Shown one piece after another: positions 1,840 through 62,797 of a stretch of 64,000 nucleotides of DNA. The notes under the pieces are model-generated. The model saw nothing but the letters and a program-made list of their open reading frames with translations. It was not told the DNA's origin and searched no databases. The position numbers and the translations under genes are program-made. Positions within the stretch are counted from its first letter, which is position 1. Every line of letters begins with the position of its first letter. This stretch comes from Carcharhinus amblyrhynchos (lineage: Eukaryota): the NCBI GenBank assembly GCA_965287045.1, contig OZ336893.1:43028001-43092000 (forward strand). The letters are read 5' to 3'.

Positions 1840-1881
1840 ATTCACCTGACGAAGAGGCTGTCCCCTCGAAAGCTTGTGAGT
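1840..1881 (+). ncRNA. Minimal type-I hammerhead ribozyme motif
   Basis: AUUCAC-CUGACGA-A-GAGG(CUGUCC)CCUC-GAAA-GC-U-U-GUGAGU: intact core, stem I, stem II, palindromic AAGCUU stem III; AATAAA at 1891-1896. Confidence 0.85.
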
Positions 1882-2419
1882 ATATTATCAAATAAATAGG
1901 TTGGACTAAAACCTGGTGTTGTCAGACTTTTTACTGTGTCTTCCCCACTCCCCATGGAGCTCCCCAGAGGGTCCCATTGGCACCTCCCCCGGCACAGCTG
2001 TCCCCCTCCCCGGGTTTATACTTGTGCATCCCCAGTGCAAACCCTTCAAAATGTTTTTTAATACCTGTTGTAAACCTTGCCAACGTGCAGTCACATCAGC
2101 AATTCTGAATGTGGGGGGAATATATGGCAGGGAAGCTCCGATTCTTTAATAACTTGTGAAAATGTATTGACACGAATTTCTCGCCCTTTCTGGGTGGGTA
2201 CCTCGTGACATCGCTGGAGAAAATGAGATCTCATCGGCAAGAATCTCATTTTCCCATTCCCGTGAGATTTTGCAGCCACACTGCCATTTGTACTCATGGT
2301 GAACAGGGGCATAAAATCACCCCATTGTCTTGGTTAGATTCCACAGATAGTCACAAAGACTGCAGCGTGTTGTCTCCAGACTAACTGCCTGAAATAGGAA
2401 TAGTATTACTGAGAATCAT

Positions 2420-3383
2420 CCAACTGGCAGGAGTGACACAGGGATCACTGCTGGGGCAGGTCAGGGAACTAAATGCAAATTTGCAGATGTCACAAAGTTG
2501 GGTGGGAGGATGAACTGTGAGGAGAATTCAGAGATCCTTCAGTGCCATTGGATAAATTGGGTGAGTGGGCAAACTAATGGATAAACATCATTTGGATAAA
2601 TGAGAGATTATCCAAAACGGGAAGGCAGATTACTGTCCGAATGGCCATAAGAAGGGAATGTGCAATGAGACCTGGATTTCCTTGTGCACCAGTCGCTGAA
2701 GGTAAACGTGCAGGTGCAGCAGGCGGTGAAGAAAGCAAATGGTATGTTATCCTTCATAGCGAGAGGATTCGAGTACAGGAGCAGGAATGTCTTGCTGCAA
2801 TTATACAGGGCCTTGATCAGGTGAGACCTGGAATAATTGTGTGCAGATTTGGTCTCCTTATCTGATAAAAGGATGTTCTTGCTCCAAACGGAGTGCAGCG
2901 AAGGTTGACCAGACTGATTCCTGGGATGGCAGGACTGACATAAGAGGAGAGATTGAGTTGATAAAGGTTGTATCAGCTGGAGTCTAGAAGAATGCGGAGG
3001 GATCTTATAGAAAGCTAAAAATTGTAACAGGGCTAGACAGGGTAGATGCAGGAAGGAAGTTCTCAATGGTGGGGATGCCCAGAACCAGCGGTCACAGTCT
3101 GAGGATGCAGAGTAGACCGTTTAGGACACAGATGAGGAGAAATTTCTTCACCCAGAGAGTGGTCAGCTGTGGAATTTGCTACAGAAAAAAACTGAGGCTA
3201 AAACATGGCTGCTTCCAAGAAGCCGTTCGATGTAGCACGTGGGGCGTAGGGGATCAGGGAATATGGGGGGGAAATGGGGTCAGACTATTGAGTTGGATGA
3301 CCAGCCATAATCATAATGAGTGGCAGAGCAGGCTCGAAGGGTCGAATAGCCTCCCCCTGCTCCTATTTTCGATGTTTTCATGA
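2420..3383 (+). mobile_element. Old 5'-truncated CR1 LINE (RT C-terminus and 3' UTR)
   Basis: Decayed KFADVTK, RRNFFTQRVV motifs with frameshifts; CR1-type 3' UTR. Confidence 0.9.
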
Positions 3384-3384
3384 A

Positions 3385-3625
3385 TATGATTCAATACACA
3401 GTACTCCGACACTGCACAGCAAGTCCAGGTGTATGATACAATACACAGTGTATGATACAATACACAGTGTATGATACCCACTGGTTAATGATACACACTG
3501 GTACACACTGGTTAATATGGTTAATACACTGGTTAATATGATACACACTGGTTAATACACAGTGTACAATACACTGTGTATGATACAATACACAGTACTC
3601 CGACACCGCACAGCAAGTTCAGGTG
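3385..3625. repeat. 47-bp direct repeat flanking a scrambled minisatellite
   Basis: 3385-3431 matches 3579-3625 (3 mismatches); the interior is built from GTGTATGATACAATACACA and CTGGTTAATACACA units. Confidence 0.85.
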
Positions 3626-4096
3626 CAACACTGAATTGTTGATTTGAGATGAATGCTTGATGTCAAAGCCTGTATGTCTTTGGATGCTTTTCAAATCTTA
3701 CACTATATTTTCCTGTGGTGCTTGCAAATTATTAATCATGAGGTGTGCTTCAGACTGTAAAAGCAATGCTCAGAGCAAGGCCAGGTTTTCCTGAACCTGG
3801 AAGCACTGGCCCACAGTTCTCTGACCATTCCCTTGCACGAGGAGAAAATCAGGACTGGTAAAAAAGAGAATTCATGAAGTACTTTTCTGGTTTCAAAATG
3901 GAGACTTTTTAACAACTTTATTGGCATAATATACTTTAAAATTCCAAAGTTAAACAACATGCACGCTCACATTTCACTAACGTCAGCTTTCTGCTTATGA
4001 ACTGAGTAGGGAATCTCCCTCTGAATACCCTGAATTGTTTTAAAAGGCCTGAAATGGTTTGTTACCATGGATTACAGCCAGACTCCACTATTATCT

Positions 4097-4405
4097 AAGT
4101 TAAAGTTTATTTATTCATCACGAGTAGGCTTACATTTCACACTGTAATTAAGGTACTGTGAAAATCCCCTAGTTGCCACACTCTGGCGCCTGTTCGGGAA
4201 CACTGAGGGAGAATTTAGCGTGGCCAATGCACCTAATGTGCACATCTTTGGACTGTGGGTGGAAACCGGAGCACCCCGAGGAAACCCTCGCAGACACGGG
4301 GAGAATGTGCAAACTCCACACAGACAGTGAGCCAAGCCGGGAATCAAACTCAGATCCTTATCGCTGTGAGGCAGCAGTGCCAACCACTGTGCCATCGTGC
4401 CACCC
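4097..4405 (-). mobile_element. tRNA-derived V-type SINE (HE1-like head/core, alternative 3' tail)
   Basis: A/B-box head GGCACAGTGGTTGGCACTGCTGCCTCACAG, shared core, tail ...GTAAGCCTACTCGTG..AATAAATAAACTT. Confidence 0.88.
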
Positions 4406-4824
4406 ATTGATCTCTGGAGCACAGATTTGAATTCAGTCTAGGTTAACGGGGAGAAAGTTCCCTTGTTCTGTCTGCTACAAGGGTCCTAATTAAGAGGCTT
4501 GGAGGCATCTCCAACCATTTCCATGAGGCCTTCATGTATCTGCTGCACAAAACTGGCAATAATTAGACAGTGAGGGAAAAGATTTCCACCATGTCATTGG
4601 AGAATAGTTGCAAGTTTAAATAAACCACTTGTACTTTTATACAACGATAGGAATTCCATCCCCGGCATTCTGGCAATTTCATTTTTCAGATTACAAGGAT
4701 GGCTGAATGTTGCAGAAAATTAAAATATCAGACTGATATTGTTAAAAATGTTCCACTGAGGATAAGAACTAATGGAATTTTACTGGGCAGGAAATAGCTT
4801 TATTTTTGTTAGCAATGGATGTAC

Positions 4825-5000
4825 AGTATGCATTTATATAGCACCTTCAATATCATAAAATGTCCCAAGGTACTTCACAGCAAACAAGTTCAACATCAAG
4901 CTACATAATGAGATATAAGGGTAGGTGATCACAAGTTTGATTTGAAGAAATGCCTTAATTAAGACAGTGGTTTAAAGGAGGAAGTTCCAGAGCTTCGTGC
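4825..5000 (-). mobile_element. L2-like LINE 3' fragment
   Basis: ATGCATTTATATAGCACCTT...CCCAAGG..CTTCACAG; related pieces at 20640-20800 and 22510-22800. Confidence 0.55.
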
Positions 5001-5652: not shown

Positions 5653-5714
5653 TAGTTATCTGAAAGCTTGTCTGCCAATGACGGATTAGTGGAAAATGGG
5701 GATGAGCAAGCAGT

Positions 5715-6420
5715 TGCAGAGACCAAACGCAGACTGGGTGATCGCTTTACCACGAACCTCCAGTCCATCCGCAAGCAGGGCCTGGCCCTCTTGCCTCTTC
5801 AACACACCACCCTGCCCTCCTGTCCACGTGCCCCTCCGGGGCCCTTCGCAATGTTCCACTGAACCCCAGTGCAAACTGCAGGAACAGCACCTCATCTTCC
5901 AATTGGGCACTTTACAGACGGAACAATGAGTTCACCAACTTCAGAGCACAAACTCCCCCCTCCACCTTCACTTCATCTCCATTTATTTTATTCCATTTTT
6001 TTAACATCTCGTTTATCCATTTTTGTCACTTTTTATTCTTATATTTTGCTTTCCCACTTCTCAAATCTCACTCTTTATCTGGTCTCCAAATCCTCCCCCT
6101 TTCCGGGACAACTGCCACATTTCTCAGGTACTCCCCGAACAATCTGTTCCTTTGTTCTGCCATTCACACATTCCGAACATTTAATGGATGCTTTTAGCAC
6201 TTTTCTCAGCCTTTATCATCATCATTTACATTTCCTTTGTCCAATTACAGCCTTCCTAATACAGCATAAATCTTGTCTGATTTTCCTTTTCTTCAGCTCT
6301 GATGAAAGGTCATCCAGACGCGAAATGTTGGCTCTATTCTCTCCCCACAGATGCTGTCAGACCTGCTGAGATTTTCTAGCAGTACTTGTTTTTGTTTCAG
6401 ATTCCCTTATCTGCAATATG
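5715..6420 (+). mobile_element. Penelope-like element 3' end (different family): GIY-YIG remnant and pLTR
   Basis: ETKRRLGDRF and KLQEQHLIFQLGTLQ peptides, then a pyrimidine-rich UTR and a hammerhead motif. Confidence 0.85.
6295..6333 (+). ncRNA. Hammerhead motif, partly decayed
   Basis: AGCU-CUGAUGA-A-AGGUC(AUCCA)GACGC-GAAA-UG-U-U-GGCU; core intact, base of stem II and stem III palindrome damaged. Confidence 0.6.
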
Positions 6421-7055
6421 TTACTTTTAAGTTAGAATTGAAAGCTGTGACTGGCAGTTGAGCTGACAGTATAATAATACCACTAATGTTATCTTGTGTT
6501 GTCTCATTTCCCTGTAATTCTATTTGTTTTCACAATTATTGAAGTTTAATCATAATGGCTCGTGCATTAGCGTCAAGAGAATGAGTTCAGAATTAGTCAT
6601 AGAAAGATAAAAAGGGGAAGTTAGTTTTCTTTCTATTGGGGTCACTAACATACGAATTGCTTCACCCCAAGTGGCGATTGAAGCTGAAACAATCAAAAGA
6701 GAAACACTTAAAAAATAAAGCTATTCGAATAAGGGACAGAATAAGAAATTAAATAGGTAAAATGCAGTACAGGGATCAGCAGAGAGCCAATAAACTGAAT
6801 GATTTCCTATTACAACAGCACTTCCATAATAATTAAAATTATACCTTTTGCATCTTTAATTACCTTCAATATTTAATCAATATCTAACATGGGGAGGGGG
6901 GGATGGCTTTCTCACAGTGTTAGCTCCAACATGAATGAGTTTTCCTTTGAGCCTGCCACAGTATACCAGGAGATGCTCAGATGACAGCCTAAGGGCTAAT
7001 AAGATATTTCTTCCCTTGCTAATGTCATCTCATCAACTACCCATCAGCTCCTGAA

Positions 7056-7859: not shown

Positions 7860-9857
7860 TTATCCAGGAACATGTGGATGTTAAGAAAGAGGATGTGTTG
7901 GAACTTTTAAATTCTATCAAGATAGATAAGTCGCCGGGACCAGATGGGATGTACCCCAGGTTACTGTGGGAGGTGAGGGAAGTGATTGCAGAGCCCCTGG
8001 CGATGATCTTTGCATCGTCGATGGAGACTGGAGAGGTTCCGGAGGATTGGAGGATTGCGGATGTGGTTCCTATTTTCAAGAAAGGGAACAGGGATAGCTC
8101 GGGAAATTACTGACCGGTGAGTCTGACCTCAGCGGTTGGTAAGTTGATGGAGAGGATTCGGAGGGACAAGATTTATGAGCATTTAGAGATGTTTAGAATG
8201 ATCAGAAATAGTCAGCACGGCTTTGTCAAGGGCAGGTTGTGCCTTACGAGCCTAGTTGAGTTCTTTAAAAATGTGACTGAACACATTGATGAAGGAAGAG
8301 CGGTAGACGTGGTTTACATGGACTTCAGCAAGGCGTTTGATTAGGTCCCCCATGCAAGACTTCTTGAGAAGGTGAGAGGGCATGGGATCCAAGGGGCTTT
8401 GGCCTTGTGGATCCAGAACTGGCTTGCCTGCAGAAGGCAGAGAGTGGTTGTGGATGGGTCTTTTTCTGCATGGAGGTCGGTTGCCAGTGGAGTGCCCCCC
8501 CAGGGATCTGTTCTAGGACCCTTGCTGTTTGTCATTTTCATAAATGACCTAGATGAGGAAGTGGAGGGATGGGTTAGTAAGTTCGCCGATGATACATAAG
8601 AACATAAGAACATAAGAAACAGGAGCAGGAGTAGGCCATCTGGCCCTTCGAGCCTGCCCCGCCATTCAATAAGATCATGGCTGATCTGTCGTGGCTCAGT
8701 TCCACTTTCCGGCCCTCTCCCCATAACCCTTAATCCCCTCTCTTATCAAAAACCCATCAACCCGCTTCTTGAAAATATTTAGCGAGGCAGCCTCCACCAC
8801 TTCAATGGGTAGAGAATTCCAGAGATTCACCACCCTTTGAGTGAAGAAGTTCCTCCTCAACTCCGTTCTAAAACGCCCCCCCTTTATCTTGAGGCTGTGC
8901 CCCCTAGTCATACTGTCTTTTTTCAGTGGGAAGAGTCTCTCCACCTCTATGCTATCCATCCCATTCATCATCTTCTTATACGTCTCACAAAGGTTGGTGG
9001 TGTTGTGGATAGTCTGGAGGGATGTCAGAAGTTGCAGTGTGACATAGATAGGATGTAAGACTGGGTGGAGAAGTGGCAGATGGACCTCAACGCGGATAAA
9101 TGTGTAGTGGTCCATTCTGGCAGGACCAATGGGATGCAGGAGTACAATATCAAGGGTAGGAGTCTTAGTTGGGTTGAAGAGCAGAAGGATCTTGGGGTCC
9201 GGGTCCACAGGACTCTTAAATCGGCCTTGCAGGTGAAGGATGTGGTCAAGAAGGCGTATGGTGTACTGGCCTTCATTAATCGAGGGATTGAGTTTAGGAG
9301 TCGGGGGATAATGCTGCAACTTTATAAGACCCTTGTCAGACCCCACCTGGAGTACTGTGCGGAGTCCTGGTCACCTCACTATCGGAAGGATGTGGAAGCT
9401 ATTGAGAGGGTGCAGAGGAGATTTACAAGGATGTTGCCTGGATTGGGAGGCATGTCTTATGAAGATAGGTTGAGGGAGCTAGGTCTCTTCCCCCTGGAGA
9501 GACAAAGGTTGAGAGGCGACCTGATAGAGGTTTATAAAATGTTGAGAGGTATAGATAGGGTGGATTCTTGGAGGCTATTTCCCAGGGCTGAAATGGTTGC
9601 TACGAGAGGGCACAGGTTTAAGTACAGAGGGGATATTAGGGGTAAGTTTTTCACTCAGAGGGTGGTGAGTGAGTGGAATCGGCTGCCGTCGGTGGTGGTA
9701 GAGGCGAACTCACTGGGGTCTTTTAAAAGACTTCTGGATGAGTAATGGGATCTAATGGCATTGGAAGTTACAGATAGTTCTATGGCTTGGTAGGTATAGA
9801 TGTGATCGGCGCAACTTGTGGGCCTGTTTGTGCTGTTGTGTTCTATGTTCTATGTTC
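7860..9857 (+). mobile_element. CR1 LINE, 5'-truncated, RT domain, (TTCTATG)n tail; interrupted by a nested CR1
   Basis: [51 protein letters not shown] motifs with a few stops and frameshifts. Confidence 0.96.
8594..8986 (-). mobile_element. Young CR1 3' fragment nested in the older CR1
   Basis: Near-identical to 51082-51465; (TTCTTATG)n tail; ACA present at both junctions (8594-8596, 8987-8989). Confidence 0.95.
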
Positions 9858-17805: not shown

Positions 17806-18839
17806 GGGATCACATTGATCCAATTACATATTCTCAACAGAATGTGTCTGATTGATCAATGATTTGATTGGAGAATGTTTGGCTCATTTTCAGCCCCCAT
17901 TAAATCTATTCCTTCTGGATTGAAAGATCATGAAATTATTTAAGACTTGAACTTGGCTTCAAAAAGATACATTGGTCTTCATTTGAACTGTAGCTTGTCA
18001 TTCACCAGAATGTGAAGATGTTAAAATACATTTAATTAGATTTTATGTTTTGTTTTGTTGTAAACACAACAAACACTACCCCGAAATTTTAAAATGTGGG
18101 ATCTTTGCCTCAAAGAAATTTCAGTTTAACTATAGATGGCTGCTGCCAGCTGAAGAACTCAATCTCCAATGATTTTAATATGTTAATGAGTCTGTATTCT
18201 TCAGATCTTACAGCCTGGCAGCTGAAAGGAAGTGGGACTTGTAAGATCCAGCTTTGCCAACACTGCTTGTGGGCTGGGAGGGAGCAAGAACGCTCCAATC
18301 ACCAGCTCAGTCTTTCAACCAAACTTGTCACTATTTCTTTACCTTTCTCCACAGTCCCTGCGATCTCTCGCCACGTACAATCGCTCTTTCTGCCATAATC
18401 TTTCATTTCCCATAACCTTCTTCCCCACGATCTTCTTTCCATGTAAGCTCTCCCACTCAGCAATCTCTAGCTCACTGCCCCCTCCCCCTCACAATCTTCC
18501 CCTCTTCCCTCAAAGCAATTTCTCTCTGCTTCCCTCTACTAGCTGTGCTCCCCTCCCTCGATCACCCTTTTGATGGCTGGAGTCACCGGGGATAGTTTGA
18601 TTGTTGCCTTGTGGAACAGATATTTTTGCCCATCAGTGAGCCAGGAGCCTCTCACTCTGGCCACCTCCCAGGTGGACAGCAATATAAAAGCAGTCCTAAC
18701 GAGCTCCTAATCCAGCAGGTCCCTCTGCATTCCCGGCATTTCAGCATTTTCCGGGCACTGGCAAGAGTCTAAACTCCCTCCCTGCAGATATCAGAGTCCT
18801 AGAGTCGATCCTCCTTATTGCACGATAATCTGTAGTAGA

Positions 18840-19130
18840 CATAGTAAAAAGTCTCACAACACCAGGTTAAAGTCCAACAGGTTAATTTAGAATCACAAGC
18901 TTTCAGAGCACTGCTCCTTCATCGGGTGATCACAATTTCTTTATCTTTCTCCAGTTCTGCGATCTCTCGCCACACACAATCTCTCTTCCTGCCATAATCT
19001 CTCATCTCCCATAACTTTCTTCCCCATGATCTTCTTTCCATGTAAATTCTTTCCAAATAAATCCATTGGACTTTAACCTGGTGCTGTGAGACTTCTCACT
19101 GTGCTCACCACAGTCCAGCATCTCCACATC
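18840..19130. mobile_element. Penelope-derived inverted insert (subfamily B) with captured DNA in the loop
   Basis: Minus arm 18840-18929 with a hammerhead motif (core CCGAUGA), plus arm ~19048-19130; TSD AATCTGT(A/G)GTAGA at 18827-18839 and 19131-19143. Confidence 0.85.
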
Positions 19131-20800
19131 AATCTGTGGTAGAGCAGTAACATAAAATACTAAAACAGGTTTCCTCTGTTTGATATTTAGAAGAATTGGA
19201 AACTCTCGTGTAAATGACTCTCTTGGTCCTTCCCATTCGACGATATCAGACAATTGGAGGATGCAAGACTTCCTGTGCTGTTAACTTGAGCTGCATTTAG
19301 ATCCACACAGAGGGAACATTTTCCACAGCTACTCTTGCTTAACTGGACGCAGCTTTGGAAACAATACAATTTCCTGCCTAACCCTGTTGCAGACGCCTTG
19401 TGTCAAAAGGAGAGCAAGAAACATGAGAGGCTTCAAAAACTAATGACAAAAATATCACTCAGTCGAAGATGAAAAATCCGTTATCATTGAACAGAACAGC
19501 TGAGACAGAAACTCAACACCAAGGAGACAGAATGAAAAGGTGACGAAATGTGCAGGGCTTTTCATGCGACGCTTTTAAAAATACAAACACTGTTAAAAAT
19601 CTTATATCACACACTGCAGTTTATCCACTCAATGTACTCACTGCATTCACGTGGCCCCTTCTGGGTGCATCTCTGGGGTGGGGAAATGTATGATAGGGTG
19701 GGTGTTTGACAACTCCAGAGGTATCTACAATGGAAAGGTTAGTCTCACAGAAACTCTAAGAGATACTCAGCATATCACCACTTCGCCTGATTACATCCAC
19801 TGGGAGAATATCGACAGCTGTCATTACATTCCGCAGCTCAGATAACAGAGATTCAGAATGGAAGAAAGATGATGTACAAAAGCGGAACCAGAAGTATCCA
19901 ATAAGCGGACAAGTATATAAACTCTGGGAAAGCTACAACATAGATTTATTAGGCTGTTACCTGAACTGGAGTTACAGTCAGGAAGAAAGGCTTGAGCAGG
20001 TAGGTTTTATTCAATGCGCTGTAATACCCAGAGCCAAAATCAACAGAGGAATGACCCTTGTCATCCCATTGTTCCAGCACCATCTGCTCAGATAGACTGA
20101 GGCTGAGATGTTGCTTTCTGCAACAAGCTTTTTGACTCCAGTGTGAAATATTGGAGAATTAGCGCCTAGACAACACATTTCCAGAATAAGCTGCATCCTA
20201 TAAAATCGCCATTTGGCCCAGCGAATTTGTACTGGTTCTTTCAAAGGACAAACCAGTCAGTCTCACTCCCCTGCTCTTTACACCAAACCCTCCACATTTT
20301 TACTCCTTTCAAATATTTATTCAATTCCCGTTTGAATCTGTATCTATCACCCGATCATTCCAAATCTCAGCCACTCATAGCACTGAAAAGTTTATTTTCA
20401 TGTCACCTGTATTGCTTTTGCTATTCAGTCAGTCTGTGCCATCTTGTTATTGACCTAGTAACTATCTGAAACAATTTTGTTACTGACTGTCCCATGTATA
20501 AAGCATTTCGACCCTGGTAAGAGGGAAGAATATAAAACTACAATATATCAATTGAGAGTAATAGGAGATCACCAACTCGGTGACACAGTAAATTGAAGAT
20601 TGAGATCGACAATCTCACAAAATGGTGAAGTGAAGCAGTAACAAGAACTTATATTTGTATAGCACCTTTACTGTGGGATAACTGATGAATGCTGGCTTAG
20701 TCAGGAACACACGTCCCGTAAAATGAATGAAAATTTTAATTTAAGAATGGTGCTCACAGGAGGATTATAAAACTAAATATGACACTTATGAGATATTTCA

Positions 20801-21123
20801 GGTGGTGCAGTGGCATAGTGGTTAGCACTGCTGCCTCACAGCGCCAGGGACCCGGGTTCGATTCTAGCCTTGGGTGACTGTCTGTGTGGAGTTTGCACGT
20901 TGTCCCTGTGTCTGCGTGAATTTCCCCCGGATGCTCCCATTTTCTCCCAGAGTCCAATAATGTGCGGGTTAGGTGGATTGGGCATGCTAAATTAACCCGA
21001 GTGTCAGGGAGATTAGCAGGGTTAATACGTGGGATTACGGGGATAGGGGCTGCGTGGGATTGTTATCGGTACAGACTCAATGGGCTGGATGGCTTCCTTC
21101 TGCACTGTAGGGATTCTATGATT
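20801..21123 (+). mobile_element. HE1-type SINE, full length
   Basis: tRNA-like head with GGGTTCGATTC B box, core, CR1-like tail CTGCACTGTAGGGATTCTATG; splits an L2-like fragment. Confidence 0.92.
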
Positions 21124-36328: not shown

Positions 36329-36571
36329 CAGATGTATTAAACGTCCCAGAACTGCCTGGGTCAGGGTTTGGAAGAGGTGGCTCCACTGATGCAGCTCCTG
36401 CAAATGTGACAAAGAAGCAGCAAATTCATTTTAATGCTTACACAAAGACAAATCTTATGCAGCCTGTTGCACAGATTTTCACTTTCCAATATCAGAAAGA
36501 GCTGCCCGTTGAGTTTTAATCTTTGGAAATGATACTGACAGTTGGGTCAGTGGAATTCTGTTTCACGTCAA

Positions 36572-36766
36572 GATGTGGGTATGCCGGTGTTGGACTGGTG
36601 TAAACACAGTAAAAAGTCTGACAACACCAGGTTTTAGTCCAACCTATTTATTTGATAATATACTCGCAAGCTTTCGGGTTACCTGACGAAGGGGCTAACC
36701 CGAAAGCTTGCGAGTATATTATCAAATAAATAGGTTGGACTAAAACCTGGTGTTGTCAGACTTTTA
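36572..36766. mobile_element. Young Penelope-derived hairpin insert (subfamily A)
   Basis: Perfect 70-bp arms 36612-36681 / 36696-36765, 14-nt loop, TSD TCACGTCAAGAT at 36563-36574 and 36767-36778 (GAT shared with the element end). Confidence 0.92.
36679..36714 (+). ncRNA. Hammerhead motif with the 5' strand of stem I cut by the inversion
   Basis: CUGACGA-A-GGG(GCUAA)CCC-GAAA-GC-U-U-GCGAG. Confidence 0.65.
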
Positions 36767-41029: not shown

Positions 41030-43463
41030 CTATGCAGTTCTGGCAGTGTAGCTCAACATCATGTTGGTTTTGTAAGTTGCTCCCCGGCATTATTTGGGCT
41101 GTTTATTTTAGGGTCGAGTGAAACTCCATCTATTTTTTATTCCTGCATGTAGGACATTACACTTGTCCAAGCTAAATTTCATCTGATTTCAACTCCACCC
41201 TGTCCCCAGCCATCCAATCACATATTGATCACACAGAGTAAAGAATTTCTTGATGAGTTTTCATTTGTCTTTTATGTACTTTTACCTGGCCTTACTGTGA
41301 TGGTTTAATTTGAAATAGATTGCTGGATTTATCATTATCTTGCACACCCTGGAAGCTCTCTCAGCAAGTGGCTCCTTTCATGACTACAAAACCTTGATTT
41401 CTCCAATCTGTTCCATAATTCAGTTCTTTCGACACTGGGAATTAGTGTCCGTTCTACTTTGAACTGCCTCTAAGTATCTCTCTTGCATCTTGGTGATCAG
41501 AACTAAACAAACACATTCTAGATTCTCCCTCTGACTTTTTGGATCAGCATATACCATTTATTTTATTAATGCTTCTCTGAGTACATCGAGACTTCAACTG
41601 AATCTGTCTTGTGGAAACAGATTGGGAAACTCTTCATCCTCATGTTTATATCAGGTCTCCTGCAGCCATCACTTTCAGAGGGGCGATTACAGGACAGCTG
41701 ACTTTTATCTTTGCTTCTAGGCCCTGTAAATACGTGAATCTTTAATTGCCATTTAAGGACAGAACTGGGCACAACTGCACCAATCTTAGCTGCAGTCCAG
41801 CCAAGGAACAGCCTCAAATTAAATGTCTATTTATTTTTATGGGGGTAACAGGTAGCCAGAAAATACACAAAGTGACCTGGTCCCCTGATGTACTCAGTGT
41901 CCAGCCCTCCTGTAAATAATCCACTATCTTCCTCCTCAAGCTAACTTTTCCCCAGACTGCACCAGCCTTCGCATCCTCAACACAATGGAGCCACTCTGCC
42001 AGTCTCTACCCGCTTGTCAACAGCTAGCCAGCCATTTCAATTAGTGCTGGCGAGGCAACTGGAATTTCCAGGAGCTGACTGCAGTAAAAGGTTTCCAATT
42101 ATTTTCACACCAATCAAAGAGAAAGGTCATTTATCTTGACTGTTGTGGGGGAAATAAACATTGTGGCTGCGTAGAGAATAGTGAGTGACATTGTGACCAG
42201 GAACGTACGTGAAACCTCAGCCCTATCAAAATAGCTGCAGTTTCATGATCAGGTTTGTGGTTTCTGGAAATGCTTTCAGACAGTTTTATTCCATTGTGAG
42301 TAGTGAAAAGCAGCTAATATGATTGTCTCTGAACAGCATGAAGGAAAACTACACAATTTTAGGAATAAGCATTGCAGGAAAATGTAATCAAAGGAGAAAC
42401 CATCTGTATCTAACTCGTGCTTCAAAGAAAACTTTTACATATCCACAGACAATGATCATTCTGGGACTGATATAATCTCACAACAGATTCAAAACACCAT
42501 GAGTTTTTTGGTACATAGTGACCTGCCAAAGTATCTCACACATTTTCAAAAATCATTCTGATTCCTGTACCTAATTCAAAGTCCACAAACTAATTAAAGC
42601 AAAGTGAAGGTCATTGTACTCCAATTAAAATGATTCGATACCAAGTGAAAGAATGACTCGTGTGCACAATTCAGTGTTCTACCATTACCAGTAAAACAAC
42701 TTACTATTGCGCTAGTGGGAAGCCTTTTACAATTTCTCGCTTCAGTCACAGACGCTGTACGTGAGTATAGGTTTATATATAGGCTACCTGCATTTTCAGT
42801 ACAAAAATGAGGCTTTGCTGCATTGAACATCTAAAAGAAAATAGCCTGCAGGGCAGAATGTGAGCAGAATACAAATGCAATAACATATATCAAACTGCAA
42901 AGGCTGACCAAGCTTCTTACTGGGAATTATTCAGGTAGCAATGGTCTACATTGAAGAGGCAACTTCCTCTTTCTAACTATTATCTGAAATCAGATTCAGG
43001 GAACCAGCAATCACCCTGTATTTTTAGACTACTTCAGTAAAATGGCATGAGCGCGCGACCTTCATTGCAAGCTGTAACACAGGGAGAAATTCTAACCTCT
43101 GCCTCCTGCAGTGCTCCGATGTTTCTTTATTCAGTTGGCATACTCACACAGCAACACAACCCTCCAACCCTTGTGATATATTTGATTTTATGATTATTTT
43201 AAAGAGATGCAGCCATTTCTTGCATTCTGCACATGAGAGGAGCTCTGAAGGAGTGGCGTGGATGCAATTAGTAACAAAGGTAGAGGATTAGAGGAGCAGG
43301 GGGGATGTGAAGCTTTAGAAGAATAAAGAGGAAGCTTGGAGAAAATCTATGAACAGATTTGTAACAGGAGACGATTCAATCCATTGAGGGACAGGGAATT
43401 AATGTTGATTCTAAGGATACGGAAAATGGCTGAGTCCAGATTAGCATATCATAGGAAGGGAGT

Positions 43464-43816
43464 CGTGATGTGGAATTGTTGGCATTGGATTGGGTTAGGC
43501 ACAGAAAATAGTCTCACAACACCAGGTTAAAGTCCAACAGATTTATTTGATAGCATGAGCTTTTGGAGCATTGCTCCTTCATCAGGTGAGTAGTGGGGTT
43601 TTATATGGTTGAGGGTTGATGGAGCATCACAAAACAGTCATGGACAGCATAGTAAGAAGTCTCACAACACCAGGTTAAAATCCAAAAGGTTTATTTGGTA
43701 GCACAAGCCGCTAGCTTTCGGAGAACTGCCCCTTCATCGGGTAAGTGGGAGTTCTGTTCTCAAACAGGGCACATAATGACACAAACTCAGTTTACAGAAT
43801 AATGGTTGGAATGCGA
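43464..43816 (-). mobile_element. Two tandem PLE subfamily-B pLTR fragments (43464-43591, 43648-43816)
   Basis: Both match 46479-46640; each has a hammerhead motif with one core mutation (GAAA>AAAA; CUGAUGA>CCGAUGA). Confidence 0.85.
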
Positions 43817-46322: not shown

Positions 46323-46422
46323 CCTGACGAATTCACCTGACGAAGAGGGAAACCTCGAAAGCTTGTGAGTCTATTATCAGATAAATCGGTTGGACTAAAA
46401 CCTGGTGTTGTCAGACTTTTTA
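46323..46422 (+). mobile_element. 100-bp PLE subfamily-A insert (ribozyme plus pLTR end only)
   Basis: TSD CAATGTTAA at 46314-46322 and 46423-46431; ACCTGACGAA duplicated at the 5' junction. Confidence 0.88.
46331..46370 (+). ncRNA. Minimal type-I hammerhead ribozyme motif with GNRA-capped stem II
   Basis: AUUCAC-CUGACGA-A-GAGG(GAAA)CCUC-GAAA-GC-U-U-GUGAGU. Confidence 0.87.
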
Positions 46423-47204
46423 CAATGTTAATCCAAGCAGGCTTCCTCTCCTGCCCCATATCTGTACCATGTTAATCCAGTAAGAAGACTCACAAAACCA
46501 GGTTAAAGTCCAACAGGTTTATTTGATAGCAAAAGCCACTAGCTTTTGGAGCACTGCCTCTTTGTCAGATGAGTGGCAGTTCTATTCACAAACAGGGTAT
46601 ATAAAGACACAATCTCAATTTACAAAATAATGGTTGGAATATGAATCTTTACAGGTAACCAAGTCTTAAAGATACAGATAATGTGAGTGGAGAGAGCATT
46701 AAGCACAGGTTAAAGAGATATGTATTGTTTCCAGACAGGACTGTTAGTGAGATTTTGCAAGCCCAGGCAAGTCGTTATGGGGTTTACGGATAGAGCGACA
46801 TGAACCCAAGATCCCGGTTGAGACTGTCCTCATGTGTGCTATCAGTCTCTGCTCAGCGACTCTGCGTTGTCGTGCGTCCTGAAGGCCGCCTTGGAGAACG
46901 CTTACCCAAAGATCAGAGGTTGAATGCCCGTGACTGCTCAAGTGTTCGCCAACAGGAAGAGAATAGTCTTGCCTGGTGATTGTCTAGTGGTGTTCGTTCA
47001 TCCATTGTCGTAGTGTCTGCATGGTCTCCCCAATGCCTCGGGACGTCCTTTCCTGCAGCGTATCAGGTAGACAACTCTGGCCGAGTTGCAAGAGTACGTA
47101 CTGTGTACCTGGTGGATGGTGTTCTCACGTGAGATGATGGCATCCGTGTCGGTGATCCAGCATGTCTTGCAGAGGTTGCTGTGGCAAGGCTGTGTGGTCA
47201 TGGT

Positions 47205-48036
47205 CACCCTAAACACGTTAAAGAAGCCATCCCCTATGGACAAGCCCTCCGTATACACAGGATCTGCTCAGATGAGGAGGATCGCAACAGACATCTCCAG
47301 ACACTGAAAGATGCCCTCATAAGAACAGGATATGGCACTTGACCCATCGACCGACAGTTCTGACGCACCACAGCGAAAAACTGCACCCATCTCCTCAGAA
47401 GCCAAACATGGGACACGCTGGACAGAGTTCCCTTCGTCGTCCAGTACTTCCCCAGAGTGGAGAAGCTACGACATCTTCCCTGGAGTCTTCAACATATCAT
47501 TGATGAAGATGAACATCTCGCCAGGGCCATCCCCACACCCCCACTTCTTGCCTTCAAACAACCGAACAACCTCAAACAGACCATTGTTCACAGCAAACTA
47601 CCCAGCCTTCAGGAGAACAGTGACCACAACACCACACAACCCTGCCACAGCAACCTCTGCAAGACATGCCGGATCATTGACACAGATGCCATCATCTCAT
47701 GTGAGAATACCATCCACCAGGTACACGGTACATACTCTTGCAACTTGGCCGACATTGTCTACCTGATAGGCTGCAGGAAAGGATGTCCCGAGGCCATGCA
47801 GACACTACAACAATGAACACCACTTGACAATCACCAGGCAAGACTGTTCCCTTCCTGTTGGTGAACACTTCAGCGGTCACGGGCATTGGGCCTCTGATCT
47901 TCAGGTAAGCATTCTCCAAGGCGGCCTTCACGACACACAACAACGCAGGGTCGCTGAGTACAGACTGATAGCCAAGTTCTGCACACATGGGGACGGTCTC
48001 AATTGGGATCTTGGGTTCATGATGCACTATCTGTAA
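47205..48036 (+). pseudogene. PLE ORF remnant: RT thumb, Cys linker, GIY-YIG endonuclease
   Basis: HPKHVKEAIPYGQALRIHRICS, PCHSNLCKTC, IVYLIGCRKGCP, PVGEHF, DGLNWDLGFM; stops and a deletion at the YIG motif. Confidence 0.9.
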
Positions 48037-48244
48037 CCCCCGTGACTTGCCTGTGCTTGCAAAACCTCACTAATTGTCCTGTCTGGAGACAATACACATC
48101 TCTTTAATCTGTGCTTAACCCTCTCTCCACTCACACTGTCTGTACCTTTAAGATTTGATTATCTGTAAAGACTTGCATTCCAATCATTATTTTGTAAATT
48201 GAGTTTGTGCCTTTATACGCCCTGTTTGTGAACAGAACTCCCAC

Positions 48245-48281
48245 TTATCTGACGAAGGGGCAGCGTTCTGAAAGCTAATGG
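48245..48281 (+). ncRNA. Hammerhead motif (subfamily B)
   Basis: UUAU-CUGACGA-A-GGGGC(AGC)GUUCU-GAAA-GC-U-A-AUGG. Confidence 0.65.
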
Positions 48282-48617
48282 ATTTTGCTCCCAAATAAAC
48301 CTGTTGGACTTTAACCTGGTGTTGTGAGTCTTCTGACTGTGTTTACCCCAGTCCAACACTGGCATCTCCACATCATGACTACCATGTTAATCCTCTCCTG
48401 TCCCATATGTGTGTCATATATGATTTCCGACATGTTGGTAATCACAGCTTCACAATTACACCAGTACCAATCAAACTTCTGCATTACCTGATTGGCCAGA
48501 GGATAAACTTCTGTTAGTTGTACACGTTCATCACACTGAAGAGAAATTTCGGCACATCTGCACTGATGGACGGGTTAAACTGGAACAGCTGTAATGATAT
48601 TTATGCTCCATTAGATT

Positions 48618-50185: not shown

Positions 50186-51081
50186 TACCTGGACACTGCA
50201 GAATACAATCATCTAATTTATTTAAAGCTATCTGTGGATAATGTATAACACGGGACTGTTTTATTGATTCAAATGTCCAAGATGTGATGATATCTAACCA
50301 GCACATAACTCTAATTTGGAAATGTTATCTGTTTTGATCTAGTGGTGCCCCTACTTCTTGAGATCTTGATAATGTTCTGGTGGTTCTGTTTGCTATCAAC
50401 ATCAGCCAGAAACTATCTAGAGCAGCATCTTCCTTAATGTACTGGTCACATGTATTTCTCAACATCAGCTTAGAATGGCCATCTGATTTTTATTTTGTTG
50501 CTTTTAAAGACTTCTGAAGGCTTTCTGTAAATATACAAGAAGAAAAAGCAACATCTGGTCAGCATAAGAACTGAATTAAATGATTAAATATTGTTGGTTG
50601 TGTTCCCATGCAAAAATCGTGATCCAATTAAAAGTGCTTCAGATTTAGTGTTACCTGTCCCATTCAAAATTGAGAGTTGGTGGGCAGGGGCAGGTGAACA
50701 AAAGAGTTTGTTCGTAGAGCTGACTTTTTTCTCTTCATGTTTCCTGTTGCACAAACTACACTTGTGAACTATTACTTTGCTGAAGAAATTCTCTCCATTT
50801 CAGTGTCCTTATTTTGAATCAGTGCAAACCCTCTGAACTTCTGCATTCTATACAAGTTTCTAACTAACAAACTCTTTCACAATCTCAAAAATAATCTCTT
50901 GGCTGTCTTTTTGTCAAAGAAAACTCTCAAGATCTCAATCAATTTTCATAGTTCTGTCTTTTATAATTATTATCTTGCAGTCCTCTGCTAAAAAGAGGAT
51001 ATTTGGTTTTTGAGTAAGGAAGTTGAAACTGGCCATGGTTTTCTTATCAGTTCAGTTGGTGATTGCTCAATATCCATGGGG

Positions 51082-52613
51082 ACATAAGAACATAAGAAAT
51101 AGGAGCAGGAGTAGGCCATCTAGCCCTTCGAGCCTGCCCCGCCATTCAATAAGATCATGGCTGATCTGTCGTGGCTCAGTTCCACATTCCCGCCCTCTCC
51201 CCATAACCCTTAATCCCCTCTCTTATCAAGAACCCATCAACCCGCTTCTTAAAAATATTTAGCGAGGCAGCCTCCACCACTTCAATGGGCAGAGAATTCC
51301 AGAGATTCACCACCCTTTGAGTGAAGAAGTTCCTCCTCAACTCCGTTCTAAACCGCCTCCCCTTTATCTTGAGGCTGTGCCCCCTAGTCCTACTGTCTTT
51401 TTTGAGCGGGAAGAGTCTCTCCACCTCTATCCTATCCATCCCATTCATCATCTTATACGTCTCAATGAGATCTCCCCTCATTCTTCTAAACTCTAACGAG
51501 TACAAGCCTAGTTTATTCAGCCTCTCCTCATAGCTCAATCCCCTCAACTCTGGTATCAGCCTAGTAAACCTCCTCTGCACTCCCTCCAGGGCCAAAATAT
51601 CCTTGCGCAGGTGCGGCGCCCAAAACTGCACACAGTACTCCAGCTGCGGCCTCACCAATGCCCTATACAGCTGCAGCAAGACCTCCCTACTTTTATATTC
51701 AATCCCCCTTGCTATGAAGGCCAGCATCCCATTCGCCGTCCTGACCACCTGCTGCACCTGCAGGCTGGGTTTTTGCGACTCATGCACAAGGACCCCGAGG
51801 TCCCTCTGCACCGTCGCCTGCTGCAGTTTTTCGCCACGTAAGTAATAGTCCTTCCTACCATTCTTCCTACCAAAGTGGACCACCTCACACTTGCCAACAT
51901 TAAATTCCATTTGCCATTTCCTGGCCCATTCGCCCAGCCTATCTAGATCCTTCTGCAGACTCTCCACACCCTCCGCACAATTTGCCTTTCCCCCAATCTT
52001 GGTGTCATCAGCAAATTTCGACACCCTGCACTCGGTTCCCTCCTCCAGATCATCTATATAAATGGTAAATAGCTGAGGCCCCAGCACCGACCCCTGGGGC
52101 ACCCCACTAGTCACCATCCGCCAATCCGAATAGCACCCATTGACCCCCACTCTCTGCCTCCTATTTGACAACCAATCCTCTATCCACGCTAACACCCTAC
52201 CCCCAACTCCATGTCCCCTGACCTTCTGCAATAACCTCTTGTGAGGTACTTTGTCAAACGCCTTCTGAAAATCCAGAAAGACCACATCCACCGGCTCTCC
52301 TCTATCCACTGCCCTAGACACATCCTCATAGAACTCCAGTAAATTTGTCAGACACGACTTCCCTTTAATGAAACCGTGTTGCGTCTGCCCTATCAAGCAA
52401 TTCCCTTCAAGATGCCTCGCAATTTCCTCCTTAATGACGGATTCTAACATTTTACCTACCACAGACGTTAAACTAACCGGCCTATAATTCCCAAACTTTT
52501 GCCTGGCACCCTTCTTAAACAACGGCGTAACATTAGCCGTTTTCCAATCTTCCGGCACTTCCCCGGAATCCAGCGACGTTTGGAAAATAACCACCAAGGC
52601 ATCCACTATAACC
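51082..52613 (-). mobile_element. Young CR1 LINE, 5'-truncated
   Basis: Uninterrupted ORF, CpG-rich, (TTCTTATG)n tail. Confidence 0.97.
51176..52606 (-). CDS. CR1 ORF2 C-terminal 476 aa (reverse transcriptase domain; N-terminally truncated, probably not expressed)
   Basis: [63 protein letters not shown] without stops. Confidence 0.93.
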   Translation of the reverse strand: MDALVVIFQTSLDSGEVPEDWKTANVTPLFKKGARQKFGNYRPVSLTSVVGKMLESVIKEEIARHLEGNCLIGQTQHGFIKGKSCLTNLLEFYEDVSRAVDRGEPVDVVFLDFQKAFDKVPHKRLLQKVRGHGVGGRVLAWIEDWLSNRRQRVGVNGCYSDWRMVTSGVPQGSVLGPQLFTIYIDDLEEGTECRVSKFADDTKIGGKANCAEGVESLQKDLDRLGEWARKWQMEFNVGKCEVVHFGRKNGRKDYYLRGEKLQQATVQRDLGVLVHESQKPSLQVQQVVRTANGMLAFIARGIEYKSREVLLQLYRALVRPQLEYCVQFWAPHLRKDILALEGVQRRFTRLIPELRGLSYEERLNKLGLYSLEFRRMRGDLIETYKMMNGMDRIEVERLFPLKKDSRTRGHSLKIKGRRFRTELRRNFFTQRVVNLWNSLPIEVVEAASLNIFKKRVDGFLIREGIKGYGERAGMWN

Positions 52614-53120: not shown

Positions 53121-53416
53121 CTCAAGATAAAGGGGAGGCGGTTTAGAACGGAGTTGAGGAGGAACTTCTTCACTCAAAGGGTGGTGAATCTCTGGAATTC
53201 TCTGCCCGTTGAAGTGGTGGAGGCTGCCTCGCTAAATATTTTTAAGAAGCGCGTTGATGGGTTCTTGATAAGAGAGGGGATTAAGGGTTATGGGGAGAGG
53301 GCGGGAAAGTGGAACTGAGCCACGACAGATCAGCCATGATCTTATTGAATGGCGGGGCAGGCTCGAAGGGCTAGATGGCCTACTCCTGCTCCTATTTCTT
53401 TTATGTTCTTATGTTC
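53121..53416 (+). mobile_element. Young CR1 3' fragment
   Basis: Near-identical to the 3' end of 51082-52613. Confidence 0.95.
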
Positions 53417-53509: not shown

Positions 53510-54790
53510 TGGCACAGAATTTCTACATTTCAGAAACAGGCCATTCAGCCCATCATGTTTGTACCAACTTACTGGGTAATTTACTAACAGCCTTTTCCTG
53601 CCTGCTCCCCATAACCCTGCACATTGTTCAAACAACAGTGTAACCCGCTTTTGAAAGCCTTCATTGAAAATCCCATCAATTCTATCCGGAACCCTCAAGA
53701 TTTTTAATACTTTTATCAAATCTTCTCTCAGCCTTTCTCTCTCTAAGGAGTACAGTCCTAACTTCTCCAATCTATCTTCATAACTCAAGTCTCACACCCT
53801 GGAACCATTCTCATGAATCTTTTCTGCACTCTCCCAATTGACTTCCGAAAGTGTGGTGCCCAAAGCTGAATGGAACACTCTCAGTGAGACTTATTCAAGT
53901 TCAAGCCAGCCTCCTTCTCCCTGTACCCTATGCCACTATTAATAAAAGCCAGGAAACTGCTGAGTTTTTGTTTATAAGAAGCCTCACAACACCAGGTTAA
54001 AGTTCAACAGGATTATTTGGTAGCTCAAGCCACAAACTTTCAGAGCACTTTTTAAATAACCTGTCTCTCAATCTATCCTGTCACTTTCAATGATTTATTC
54101 ACACATACCCCCAGGACCACCTGCTCCTGTACCCACTTTAAAGTTGTACCTTTCATTTTATATTGTTCCTCCTACCAAAGAGAATCACTTCACATTTCTC
54201 CCCAGTGAATTGTACCTGCCACCTGCTCACCCTCTCCATCAACTTTTTATGTCCTTTTGAAGATCTGCTCTCAAGTTTTGTATCGTCCACAAATTTTGAA
54301 ATTGTTCCCTGTACACCAAGGTCAGGAACAAATATCAGGAAAAATAAGGATCCCAACACTGACCCCTGCAGAATTACATTACAAACCGTCCTCCAACCCA
54401 AAAAACATCCATTAAGCATGATCCTATTTCCTGTCACTCAGCCAATTTTGTAACCACGTTGCTACTGTCCCTTTTATTCCATGAGCTATAACTTTTCTCA
54501 CAAATCCTGTATCAGTTGTCTTTTAGAAGTCCAAATACATCACATCAACAGCATTGCCCTCATCAATCCTCACTGACACTTCTTCAAAAATCTCAAGTAA
54601 GTTAGTTAAATGCGATTTTCCCTTAAGAAATCTGTGCTGGCTTTCCTTAATCAACAAACATTTGTCCATGTAACTATTAATTTTGTCCCAAATTATTGTT
54701 TCTAGAAGTTTCCACATCACTGAAGTTAAACTGGCTGGCCTGTAGTCGTTGGGCTTATCATTACGTCCTTTTTTGAATAAGGATGTAACA
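53510..54790 (-). mobile_element. Old CR1 with a PLE-B pLTR fragment at 53975-54049
   Basis: QHRFLKGKSHLTNLLE, LQGSVLG, KFVDDTK, SYEDRLEKLGL. Confidence 0.88.
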
Positions 54791-59769: not shown

Positions 59770-60445
59770 ATAAGTTCATAAGTTCATAAGATACAGGAAC
59801 AGAATCAGGACATTCAGCCCATCAAGTCTGCTCCACCATTCGATCATGGCTGGTGTGCTTCTCATCCCCGTGTTCCTGCCTTCTTCCCATTGCCCTTCAA
59901 CCCATTACCAATTAAAAACCTATCTAACTCCTCCTTAAATTTACTCACTGTCCCAGCATCCACCGCACTTTGGGGGAGCGAATTCCACAAATTCACAGCC
60001 CTTTGGGAGAAGTAGTTTCTCCTCAGCTCTGTTTTAAATTTGCTGTCCCTTATCCGAAGGCTATGACCTCTCATCCTAGAATATCCCACAAGAGGAAGCA
60101 TCTCCACAACTACTTTATACATATCTTTTATCATATATATTTCAATTTGATCTCCCCTCATTCTTCTAAGTTCCAGAGTATCGGCCTAAACTGTTCAATC
60201 TCTCTTCATACGACAAACCTCTCATCTCTGGAATCAATCTGGTGAACCTCCTCTAAACTGTCTCCACTACATCTTTCCTCAATAAGGGAACCAAATCTGC
60301 AGAATAATCCAGGTGCGGCCTCACCAATGCCTTGTATAATTGCAACAATACTTCCTTATCTTTATATTCTGTTCCTTTAGCTGTAAATGCCAACATTCCA
60401 TTTATTTTCTTTAGTATCTGCTGTACCTACATGCTAGTTTTCTGT
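59770..60445 (-). mobile_element. CR1 3' fragment
   Basis: ELRRNYFSQRAVNLWNSLPQ; (TTATGAAC)n tail. Confidence 0.9.
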
Positions 60446-61104
60446 GGGTAATTTTCTTTGGATAATTTCTCAGCCGTTAATACTGAGCATTGCTTACTCT
60501 GTCAACCATCTGTGACATTCCCACAGATTACTCGTTTTGCCAAATGCTCACATTTTTAAAAGAAAATTAAATTAAAATTTGATGGACTGTCTTGCAACAA
60601 ACATTAAAGTCGCATTCAGTGTAAATTCTAATCCTTCTGCGATCTTTCTGATGGAGCTGTCTCATGCTGGCAGAGGTGCATCATCTGAGAACTCATCCCC
60701 GATGTGTGAGCCTAAACAATGACTCTTGGCTGGCAGGAGGGATAGGGCGTCACAGCTGAGCCCAGTTCTGTTTCATTCTCCTAACAGAGATCCTAACAGG
60801 AGTCGCTGAATAGTAGTGGGATTTTCCCTCTCCAAGTCCAACAGATCCAAGGTCAGTTGTGATGTTCCCCGTGGTTGTCCTCATAGAAATTTTCTGCATG
60901 TCATTTACAAATAACCCCATTACAGATCAGAAAGTTTAAAACCGGCCAAATGAGGGTACATTTGAAGCTTCTGAAATAAGTGCAATGTTTCCAGCAAAGT
61001 TTGCTTAGGGGCACAAGACATTTTAATTGGGCCAATTTAATAGCTCAATACTTATGGAGATGTTGCCAGTGTAAATGTCATGTCTGCAAATTAAACTATC
61101 CTAA

Positions 61105-61662
61105 CAGTTTTGGGCGCCGCACCTGCACAAGGATATTTTGGCCCTGGAGGGAGTGCAGAGGAGGTTTACTAGGCTGATACCGGAGTTGAGGGGGTTGAGC
61201 TATGAGGAGAGGCTGAATAAACTAGGCTTGTACTCGTTAGAGTTTAGAAGAATGAGGGGAGATCTCATTGAGACGTATAAGATGATGAATGGGATGGATA
61301 GGATAGAGGTGGAGAGACTCTTCCCGCTCAAAAAAGACAGTAGGACTAGGGGGCACAGCCTCAAGATAAAGGGGAGGCGGTTTAGAACGGAGTTGAGGAG
61401 GAACTTCTTCACTCAAAGGGTGGTGAATCTCTGGAATTCTCTGCCCGTTGAAGTGGTGGAGGCTGCCTCGCTAAATATTTTTAAGAAGCGGGTTGATGGG
61501 TTCTTGATAAGAGAGGGGATTAAGGGTTATGGGGAGAGGGCGGGAAAGTGGAACTGAGCCACAACAGATCAGCCATGATCTTATTGAATGGCGGGGCAGG
61601 CTCGAAGGGCTAGATGGCCTACTCCTGCTCCTATTTCTTATGTTCTTATGTTCTTATGTTCT
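61105..61662 (+). mobile_element. Young CR1 3' fragment
   Basis: 139-aa ORF nearly identical to the end of the 476-aa ORF; CTAAC at both junctions (61101-61105, 61661-61665). Confidence 0.96.
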
Positions 61663-61900
61663 AACTGGTTCTATTTTTGATAATGTCCAAAACAAAGTTT
61701 TTCTTCATACAAATGTCTTGTGCACAGCTGCACCAGTTTGTTAAAAAGATGGAGCAAGTGTAAAGAACAATCTGTCAGAAACATTGGGCTTCTCAATCAG
61801 AAAGGCAAAGGTTTTTGCACAAGGAGTGTCACCTGTAATTCTTATTACAGAAATCGCAGAAAAATGGTGTCTGGGAAATCCTATTGGTCATAATGCTGAA

Positions 61901-62797
61901 CATGAGTTGAAAATGTCAGCGTTGGACTGAGGTAAACACAGTAAGAAGCCTCACAACACCAGGTTAAAGTCCAACAGGTTTATTTGGTCGCAAAAGCCTT
62001 CAGGTAATTGGGAGTTACAAAATAATGATTGGAATGTGAGTCTTTACAGGTAATCAAGTCTTAAAGGTACAGACAATGTGAGTGGAGAGAGGCTTAAGCA
62101 CAGATTAAAGAGATGCGTATTGTCTCCAGACAGGACAGTTAGTGAGATTTTGCAAGTCCAGACAAGTCAGGGGGGTTACAGATAGTGCGACATGAACCCA
62201 AGATCCTGGCTGAGGCTGTCCTCATGTGTGCAGAACTTGGCTATCAGTCTCTGCTCAGCGGCTCTGCGCTGTCGTGTGTCGTGAAGGCCACCTTGGAGAA
62301 CGCTTACCCGAAGATCAGAGGCCAAATGCCTGTGACCGCTGATATGTTCCTCAACAGGAAGAGAACACTCTTGCCTTGTAATTGTCAACAATCACCAGGC
62401 AAGAGTGTTCTTTTCCTGTTGGGGAACACAGATAGCCAAGTTCCACATGTATGAGGATGGCCTCAGCTGGGATCTTGGATTCATGTCACACTATCTGTAA
62501 ACCCCATGACTTGCCTGGACTTGCAAAATCTCACTAACTATTCTGTCTGGAGACAATACACATCTCTTTAACCTGTGCTTCAGTCTCTCTGCACTCACAC
62601 TGTTTGTACCTTTAAGACTTGATGACCTGTAAAGACTTGCATTCCAACCATTATTCTGTAAATTGAGTTTGTGACTTTATACGCCCTGTTTGTGAACAGA
62701 GCTCTCACTTACCTGACGAAGGGGCAGCGCTCTGAAAGCTAGTGGCTTTTGCCACCAAATAAACCTGTTGGACTTTAACCTGGTGTGAGACATCTTA
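61901..62797. mobile_element. PLE subfamily-B inverted insert
   Basis: Minus arm to ~62387 with a GIY-YIG C-terminal remnant, plus arm after; TSD CATAA(T/A)GCTGAA at 61889-61900 and 62798-62809. Confidence 0.9.
62709..62745 (+). ncRNA. Hammerhead motif (subfamily B)
   Basis: UUAC-CUGACGA-A-GGGGC(AGC)GCUCU-GAAA-GC-U-A-GUGG. Confidence 0.7.

Follow-up and report, generated by a model that had tools for sequence, protein, structure and literature searches.

The window analysed here, a stretch of 64,000 nucleotides (64 kb) from Carcharhinus amblyrhynchos (assembly GCA_965287045.1, contig OZ336893.1, positions 43,028,001 to 43,092,000 of the forward strand), contains many ends of a Penelope-like element (PLE) that carry small hammerhead ribozyme motifs. 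Eleven hammerhead cores were tabulated, four of which belong to family A (cores at 1803 on the minus strand and at 1846, 36683 and 46337), six to family B and one to family C (6299). These motifs are minimal type-I hammerheads in the pseudo-long terminal repeat (pLTR) of a shark-type PLE encoding a reverse transcriptase (RT) and a GIY-YIG domain, and their stem II is paired at 10.1-10.3 from one lineage to the next. The features of the window are as follows:

1674..1951: family-A head-to-head inverted pLTR pair, with a tailed minus arm (1674-1820) and a tailless plus arm (1817-1951)
1768..1809, minus strand: minimal hammerhead with stem II GAGG-CTGTCC-CCTC and an intact core
1840..1881, plus strand: minimal hammerhead with stem II GAGG-CTGTCC-CCTC and an intact core; predicted cut at 1875/1876
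6293..6335, plus strand: minimal hammerhead of the older family C, whose shared sequence spans about 5713-6452; this copy has its two outer stem II pairs broken
18835..19131: fragments of old family-B pLTRs; hammerhead at 18891-18931 (minus strand) with core change U4C
36567..36765: family-A fold-back stub; hammerhead at 36677-36715 (plus strand), stem II GGG-GCTAA-CCC, GCGAG lineage
43461..43816, minus strand: two old family-B pLTR copies; hammerheads at 43551-43591 (G12A) and 43706-43746 (U4C, pair 5 broken)
46331..46429, plus strand: family-A single arm; hammerhead at 46331-46370 with an intact core and stem II GAGG-GAAA-CCTC
46478..48385: inverted insertion of family B carrying the 3' part of the RT/GIY-YIG open reading frame (ORF); hammerheads at 46534-46574 (minus strand, dead) and 48243-48283 (plus strand)
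53972..54049, minus strand: family-B pLTR fragment ending inside stem II
61901..62786: family-B compound insertion with 3' fragments of the ORF; hammerhead at 62707-62747 (plus strand)

Each motif opens with the 5' strand of stem I and CUGAnGA, continues with an extra A, stem II and GAAA, and closes with a palindromic dinucleotide, UH and the 3' strand of stem I, i.e. it has the minimal hammerhead core CUGAnGA...GAAA...UH with an extra base after A9 (positions are numbered after Cervera and De la Peña 2014, PMC4209133). Helix I is short, and positions 15.2-16.2 are palindromic without a helix III, reading AGCU in families A and B and ACGU in family C. When a 3-bp stem and the palindromic stem III positions were both demanded, six cores remained in the window, compared with a mean of 0.01 and a maximum of 1 in 200 shuffles of its two-base blocks. 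For all 14 paired types that were folded, the predicted minimum-energy structure holds stem II and most of stem I, the latter 5-6 bp long; the two A·C types folded lose stem II or show it broken. In a cofold of two monomers, stems I and II were swapped and the AGCU helix III was not formed. A scan of the window against Rfam gave five matches at E<=1, among which the hammerhead family was absent, as would be expected for a motif without helix III; the matches to MIR538 and MIR7533 were set aside as the palindrome at 1770-1879.

All three family-A stem types named in the original prediction are present: GAGG-CTGTCC-CCTC at core 1846 (and again at 1803 on the minus strand), GGG-GCTAA-CCC at 36683 and GAGG-GAAA-CCTC at 46337. 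The downstream pLTR of these three copies is nearly identical, as had been claimed, with 58-61 of 62 nucleotides shared among them. The further statement that all copies keep or derive from CUGAyGA holds in part: all catalytic bases are kept in seven of the 11 cores, but one has changed in four of the six family-B cores (U4C twice, G12A, and G8A together with G12A), and one of these dead cores is the very copy quoted as GGAGC-AGU-GCUCU. The 36683 copy is truncated and lacks the native 5' strand of stem I; the two arms of the pair at 1674..1951 differ at a single lineage-diagnostic site.

The anatomy of the host element can be read from a 10-kb stretch of the same genome (locus L061) holding a 3,014-bp repeat unit that comprises a pLTR with its hammerhead and then, about 125 nt past the start of the core, an ATG, followed by RT, a linker and GIY-YIG. 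A single ORF joins the RT (PF00078, E 7e-10) to a C-terminal GIY-YIG domain (PF01541, above cut-off), and its closest named proteins come from sharks (84-91%); a fully intact ORF was found in none of the loci examined. Family-B pieces in the window encode the same ORF end, with 75-87% amino acid identity to family A. The motif thus lies in PLE pLTRs, weakly so for family C, in which weak matches to PLE proteins occurred in 4/30 loci. The pLTRs, an inverted arm, a one-sided tail and a target site duplication (TSD) are likewise present: exactly one arm is tailed in 74/76 inverted pairs of a first set and in 44/44 of a second, and the TSD length has its mode at 12 bp. The element therefore belongs to the endonuclease-bearing (EN+) PLEs. 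Its clade is likely Neptune, judging by the translated linker CxxxxCxxC between RT and EN, which fits the CX2-5CxxC motif described for Neptune, and also for Nematis, by Craig et al. (2021, PMC8557442). A non-LTR retrozyme, i.e. a non-coding tandem repeat with a hammerhead, was rejected as an identity, as no tandem array in the window carries the motif and the repeat unit is coding.

Two further observations concern the host element. Up to 0.55 of the sampled words of L061:5560-6400 occur in sequencing runs of eight organisms, and the family is therefore common to relatives. Family-C loci (window 6255-6295, L293-L321) show a TATAAA-like box, a pyrimidine tract and a CAG abutting the 5' strand of stem I, and the tract with its CAG resembles a 3' splice site; in D. 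virilis, the end of the Penelope intron maps to helix I (PMC4209133).

Beyond the window, a family-A pattern matched the genome 21,465 times, compared with 0 matches for the reversed control. Stem II variants, from which several source lineages had been proposed, are not singletons: 15 types, including all three quoted ones, occur at at least two loci each (128 loci, contig C1), with a divergence within types of 0.2-1.3%. At pair 10.2-11.2, 18,110 family-A matches split into 9,047 G-C, 8,632 A-U, 277 G·U and 154 A·C, and 99 of 100 copies anchored by their flank are Watson-Crick at this pair (hand tally). One type, a single lineage, makes up 45 of the first 100 G·U matches (hand tally); once its share is subtracted, about 150 G·U remain, the same number as for A·C and what symmetric decay would give. 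Both arms share G·U in 11/17 inverted pairs compared with A·C in 2/16 (p 0.004), but nine of these 11 belong to that one lineage. The genome-wide counts at 10.2-11.2 and the flank-anchored tally are the results free of a pairing bias that affects the remainder, as described below.

Helix II has G10.1-C11.1 and covaries. Of 25 multi-locus types in families A-C, 23 have pair 2 paired, 25 pair 3 and 20 pair 4, compared with 18.6, 21.2 and 15.4, respectively, after column shuffling. The fifth base, located between the two partners of 10.2-11.2, forms all four gametes in combination with either of them, yet 10.2-11.2 stays coupled, which argues against proximity alone as the source of the coupling. 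Among 13-nt windows, diversity is highest over stem II (0.92, with 15 multi-locus types), followed by 0.89 from H17 onward; it is 0.11 over the core and 0.14-0.80 in other flank windows.

Some details of the variants deserve mention. In the 12-nt types with GAGG/CCTC (e.g. L031, L038, L045, L240), the loop varies mostly within GNRA (GAAA, GTAA, GGAA, GAGA, GGGA). In the lineage of L214 and L222, the free core position 7 (CTGAAGA) and H17 are both occupied by A, shared changes at sites where the core tolerates them. Identical hammerhead types at regular spacing in C1:5.34-5.53 Mb and C21:47.7-48.2 Mb are segmental duplications that inflate copy counts; of the tandem duplicates at C1 5.3-5.5 Mb, one of each was kept.

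Families B and C tell a different story from the covariation first claimed for them. The family-B consensus, GG[A/G]GC-AGC-GCTCC (20,039 genome matches), contains a CpG at C11.1-G12, and the first 100 matches read CG 45, TG 27, CA 27 and TA 1 (hand tally; 16/8/6 in 30 loci counted by script). Changes that leave a G·U pair and changes that destroy G12 are thus equally common, which marks GCUCU, put forward as a covarying stem II strand, as C-to-T decay of GCUCC; the copy at 62707-62747, with GGGGC-AGC-GCTCT, carries this G·U at 10.1-11.1. At the CpG of the family-B loop, the pair-breaking change is even ahead, by 11 to 7. In family C, stem II is a 5-bp G[G/A]GTC-ATCCA-GACTC (25/30 loci parsed), so that the GUC/GAC stem proposed at 6295 is the inner part of a longer helix, of which the window copy (AGGTC/GACGC) has lost the outer two pairs, including the conserved G10.1-C11.1. 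Among 100 family-A copies, G8A was counted eight times and C7T four times, and G12A six times compared with five listed cases of C11.1T, three of them independent (hand tallies). Inserted genomic copies are under no selection and decay neutrally. As the family-B and 6295 examples are decay and four of six B cores are dead, selection likely acts on the source RNA only, and unevenly.

How the stem II types are distributed among lineages was read from a flank tree of 84 loci (one copy each, at least 200 upstream bases, ribozyme removed); the 55 merged loci retrieved solely for their G·U or A·C pair are not part of it. Changes on this tree were fewer than in shuffles for pair class (15 vs 23), length class (12 vs 28) and the fifth base (20 vs 27). 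By comparison, 17 non-CpG flank sites, each omitted in turn, required 1-12 changes (median 5, most 1-9). Approximately unbiased (AU) tests rejected a single clade for G-C types (p 0.006), long types (0.003), GAGGCAGTCCCCTC (0.003) and CTAAC-loop types (0.022). Hence, there is no one-to-one correspondence between stem II types and source lineages, and copy counts may greatly overstate the number of independent compensatory mutations. As the types are not clades on the flank tree, stem II variants likely reassort between lineages. The same multi-step type is found on both old and young flanks, a pattern poorly explained by recurrent point mutation and suggestive of exchange, and in one insertion with a shared TSD (L403) an internal and a terminal pLTR, in tandem, are of different types. 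A single crossover at the cleavage site was rejected as the cause, because upstream and downstream flank sites are mostly compatible across the ribozyme, in a test whose loci were in part selected for G·U and A·C.

The explanation that we favour, with a probability of roughly 0.78, is that stem II stays paired since only source RNAs with a folded stem were copied well, that inserts decay neutrally and that variants recombine among co-active lineages. The source transcript would span pLTR-ORF junctions, and the hammerhead is predicted to cleave itself after CUU or CUA, either as a dimer or aided by protein. The element protein may prime both nicked strands at two start points, RNAs whose stem II is folded would be favoured, with cleavage, protein binding or processing as the possible property under selection, and recombination would carry stem II between lineages. 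Accordingly, the original proposal of selection on the RNA fold in several co-active PLE lineages survives as regards PLE identity, young lineages and the pairing of the inner three pairs by lineage, but not for genomic copies, for the family-B and 6295 examples or for stem I.

Several points weigh against this explanation. The column shuffle of the 25 types ignores relatedness, and because many loci were retrieved with patterns requiring 10.2-11.2 to be paired or the core to be intact, the stem-type, flank-tree, diversity, four-gamete and 25-type results lean to pairing. Only 10 of the 15 multi-locus A types retain pair 10.4. The flank tree is a weak ladder without any starred branch, and some flank sites are homoplastic too, with 9-12 changes. 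Moreover, ribozyme-dead anole mutants still insert in vitro, and the cut site there comes without mapped RNA ends (PMC11167929). Stem I is held less tightly than stem II: its 3' strand reads GCGAG in 1,966 copies, and 97 of the first 100 of these keep the 5' strand TTCAC, which leaves A·C mismatched at one pair's distance from the core; one GCGAG lineage, of which the 36683 copy is a member, is among the youngest (0.35%). A GTGCG lineage breaks stem I pair 4 as well (13/207 copies). This suggests that pairing of stem II is constrained and that a perfect stem I is not.

In a rival, historical reading, one or two double changes happened once, the short stem has since been passed on as one linked unit and the many counts reflect few events; a single pair of mutations that spread in this way could account for the A-U/G-C switch. 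Within family A, pair 10.2-11.2 alone shows two-sided change, the neighbouring flank sites D8/D11 are also in near-perfect linkage, and lineages with a broken stem I amplified freely. However, the uncoupled site between the coupled partners is hard to reconcile with a linked block, more two-sided changes are seen at pairs 3-5 between families, and the single large non-Watson-Crick lineage is G·U rather than A·C. Overall, we regard this history as unlikely, if the most serious competitor to selection on the source RNA.

A mutational origin appears very improbable. Template switching during reverse transcription or DNA repair can perfect a quasi-palindrome and thereby change both sides of a hairpin without selection, and stem II, with its runs of G and C, is the most variable window in an element whose insertions here commonly show fold-back junctions. 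Against such hairpin templating stand the G·U pairs that persist in lineages of all three families and the loop-side mismatches (C·C, A·C) left uncorrected in the largest lineages, and changes limited to a single arm are one-sided. Least probable of all is a host function that selects for the fold in genomic copies; many copies with an intact core and occurrences in contigs of runs guessed to be RNA could be cited for it, but it is largely refuted in bulk by the equality of core-killing and harmless CpG changes in family B (27 vs 27), the family-A counts of G8A over C7T (8 vs 4) and G12A over C11.1T (6 vs 5), and the dead B cores of the window (4/6).

The inverted insertions raise the question of whether one or two RNA templates are used. 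Arms of inverted pairs differ at 3.8% of lineage-diagnostic sites compared with 1.15% elsewhere, although sites are not independent. Eleven of 76 pairs were flagged at first for discordant arms; L167 and L258 were removed as compound insertions, and L047 because its outer arms agree and only an internal pLTR differs. This left 8/73 pairs that differ at two or more lineage-diagnostic sites. The TSD measures 10-12 bp in five of them, and in all eight the two cores are separated by 125 bp or more. The result was not replicated in 44 fresh short palindromes (50 listed of the 396 in the genome, six of which were already in the first set): none was discordant, and diagnostic sites showed no excess (3/388 vs 24/2021). 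Restricted to the same sites, 3/52 long and 0/65 short pairs are discordant (p ~0.08, by hand). The short palindromes may have been homogenised or may be fold-back products, and it is possible that discordant arms arose by later gene conversion by other copies. Discordant arms hint at two templates and remain a lead. A tentative and rather doubtful extension is that inverted insertions are primed on both target strands from two RNA copies, not by fold-back of one molecule, and that heterotypic products move intact stem II cassettes, so that A-U and G-C types outlast flank turnovers. If discordant arms truly derive from two templates, they would decide between self-priming and dual priming in PLE integration. 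As to the junctions themselves, 5' junctions (e.g. window 46324-46345) often hold short re-copied pLTR pieces, which suggests repeated restarts of the RT, and 38/207 arms end at most 20 nt upstream of the core.

Much of this picture has precedents. Minimal hammerheads with an extra base after position 9 were described in vertebrate PLEs, in families that are full of covariations, extremely variable and of low activity (Cervera and De la Peña 2014, PMC4209133); variable, covarying PLE hammerheads are thus already published. Helix II has 7-8 bp in the Schistosoma families of that study and 3-5 bp here, and lineage changes were there neither separated from decay nor stem types placed on a flank tree, both of which were done here; sharks are unnamed in the sections covered and in supplementary file 2. 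In Poseidon PAc of the green anole, the hammerhead sits, like the one here, where pLTR and ORF meet (Frangieh et al. 2024, PMC11167929), and two adjacent RT start sites set the tail while both target strands are extended, to be compared with the one-tailed arms in 74/76 and 44/44 pairs; cleavage is protein-assisted, and insertion also proceeds without it. PAc differs in its linker, the CxxxxCxxC found here being the one described for Neptune and Nematis, and in that its ORF begins at stem II, whereas an ATG about 125 nt past the core start leaves stem II free to change length in the shark element. Head-to-head arms, a 30-40 bp tail on one arm, a short TSD and partial tandems are shared with known EN+ PLE units (Arkhipova et al. 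2013, PMC3846280, Craig et al. 2021, PMC8557442; see also PMC6155905). The inversion was ascribed to self-priming (PMC3846280), whereas the 8/73 discordant pairs are unexpected from pure fold-back. Non-LTR retrozymes carry type-I hammerheads from PLE pLTRs (bioRxiv 10.64898/2026.07.22.740005, with one chondrichthyan genome sampled), yet they form non-coding tandem arrays, unlike the dispersed or inverted ends of a coding PLE seen here. In a literature search whose scope excluded most subscription papers as well as Repbase and Dfam, neither shark stem II lineages nor discordant or two-template arms were found reported. The finding is therefore real but mostly ordinary: motif and covariation are otherwise largely known, and quantitative refinements are added. 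Its interest is that PLE hammerheads cleave weakly and are dispensable for insertion in vitro, and that about 18,000 young copies of one family in this genome make selection on the source RNA separable from decay of the copies.

Other repeats share the window. A tandem array at 34114-35586 consists of 25 copies of a 59-bp unit (93% matches) without a hammerhead core. A dispersed repeat at 8592-8974, 51072-51628, 53121-53400 and 61105-61659, 96-99% identical and ending in an 8-bp tandem tail, is probably the 3' end of a young long interspersed element; its sequence also splits pLTR copies in L011 and L052. Finally, 20810-20912 and its copies comprise several short interspersed repeat families (D3, D12-D20), which are probably tRNA-derived short interspersed elements.

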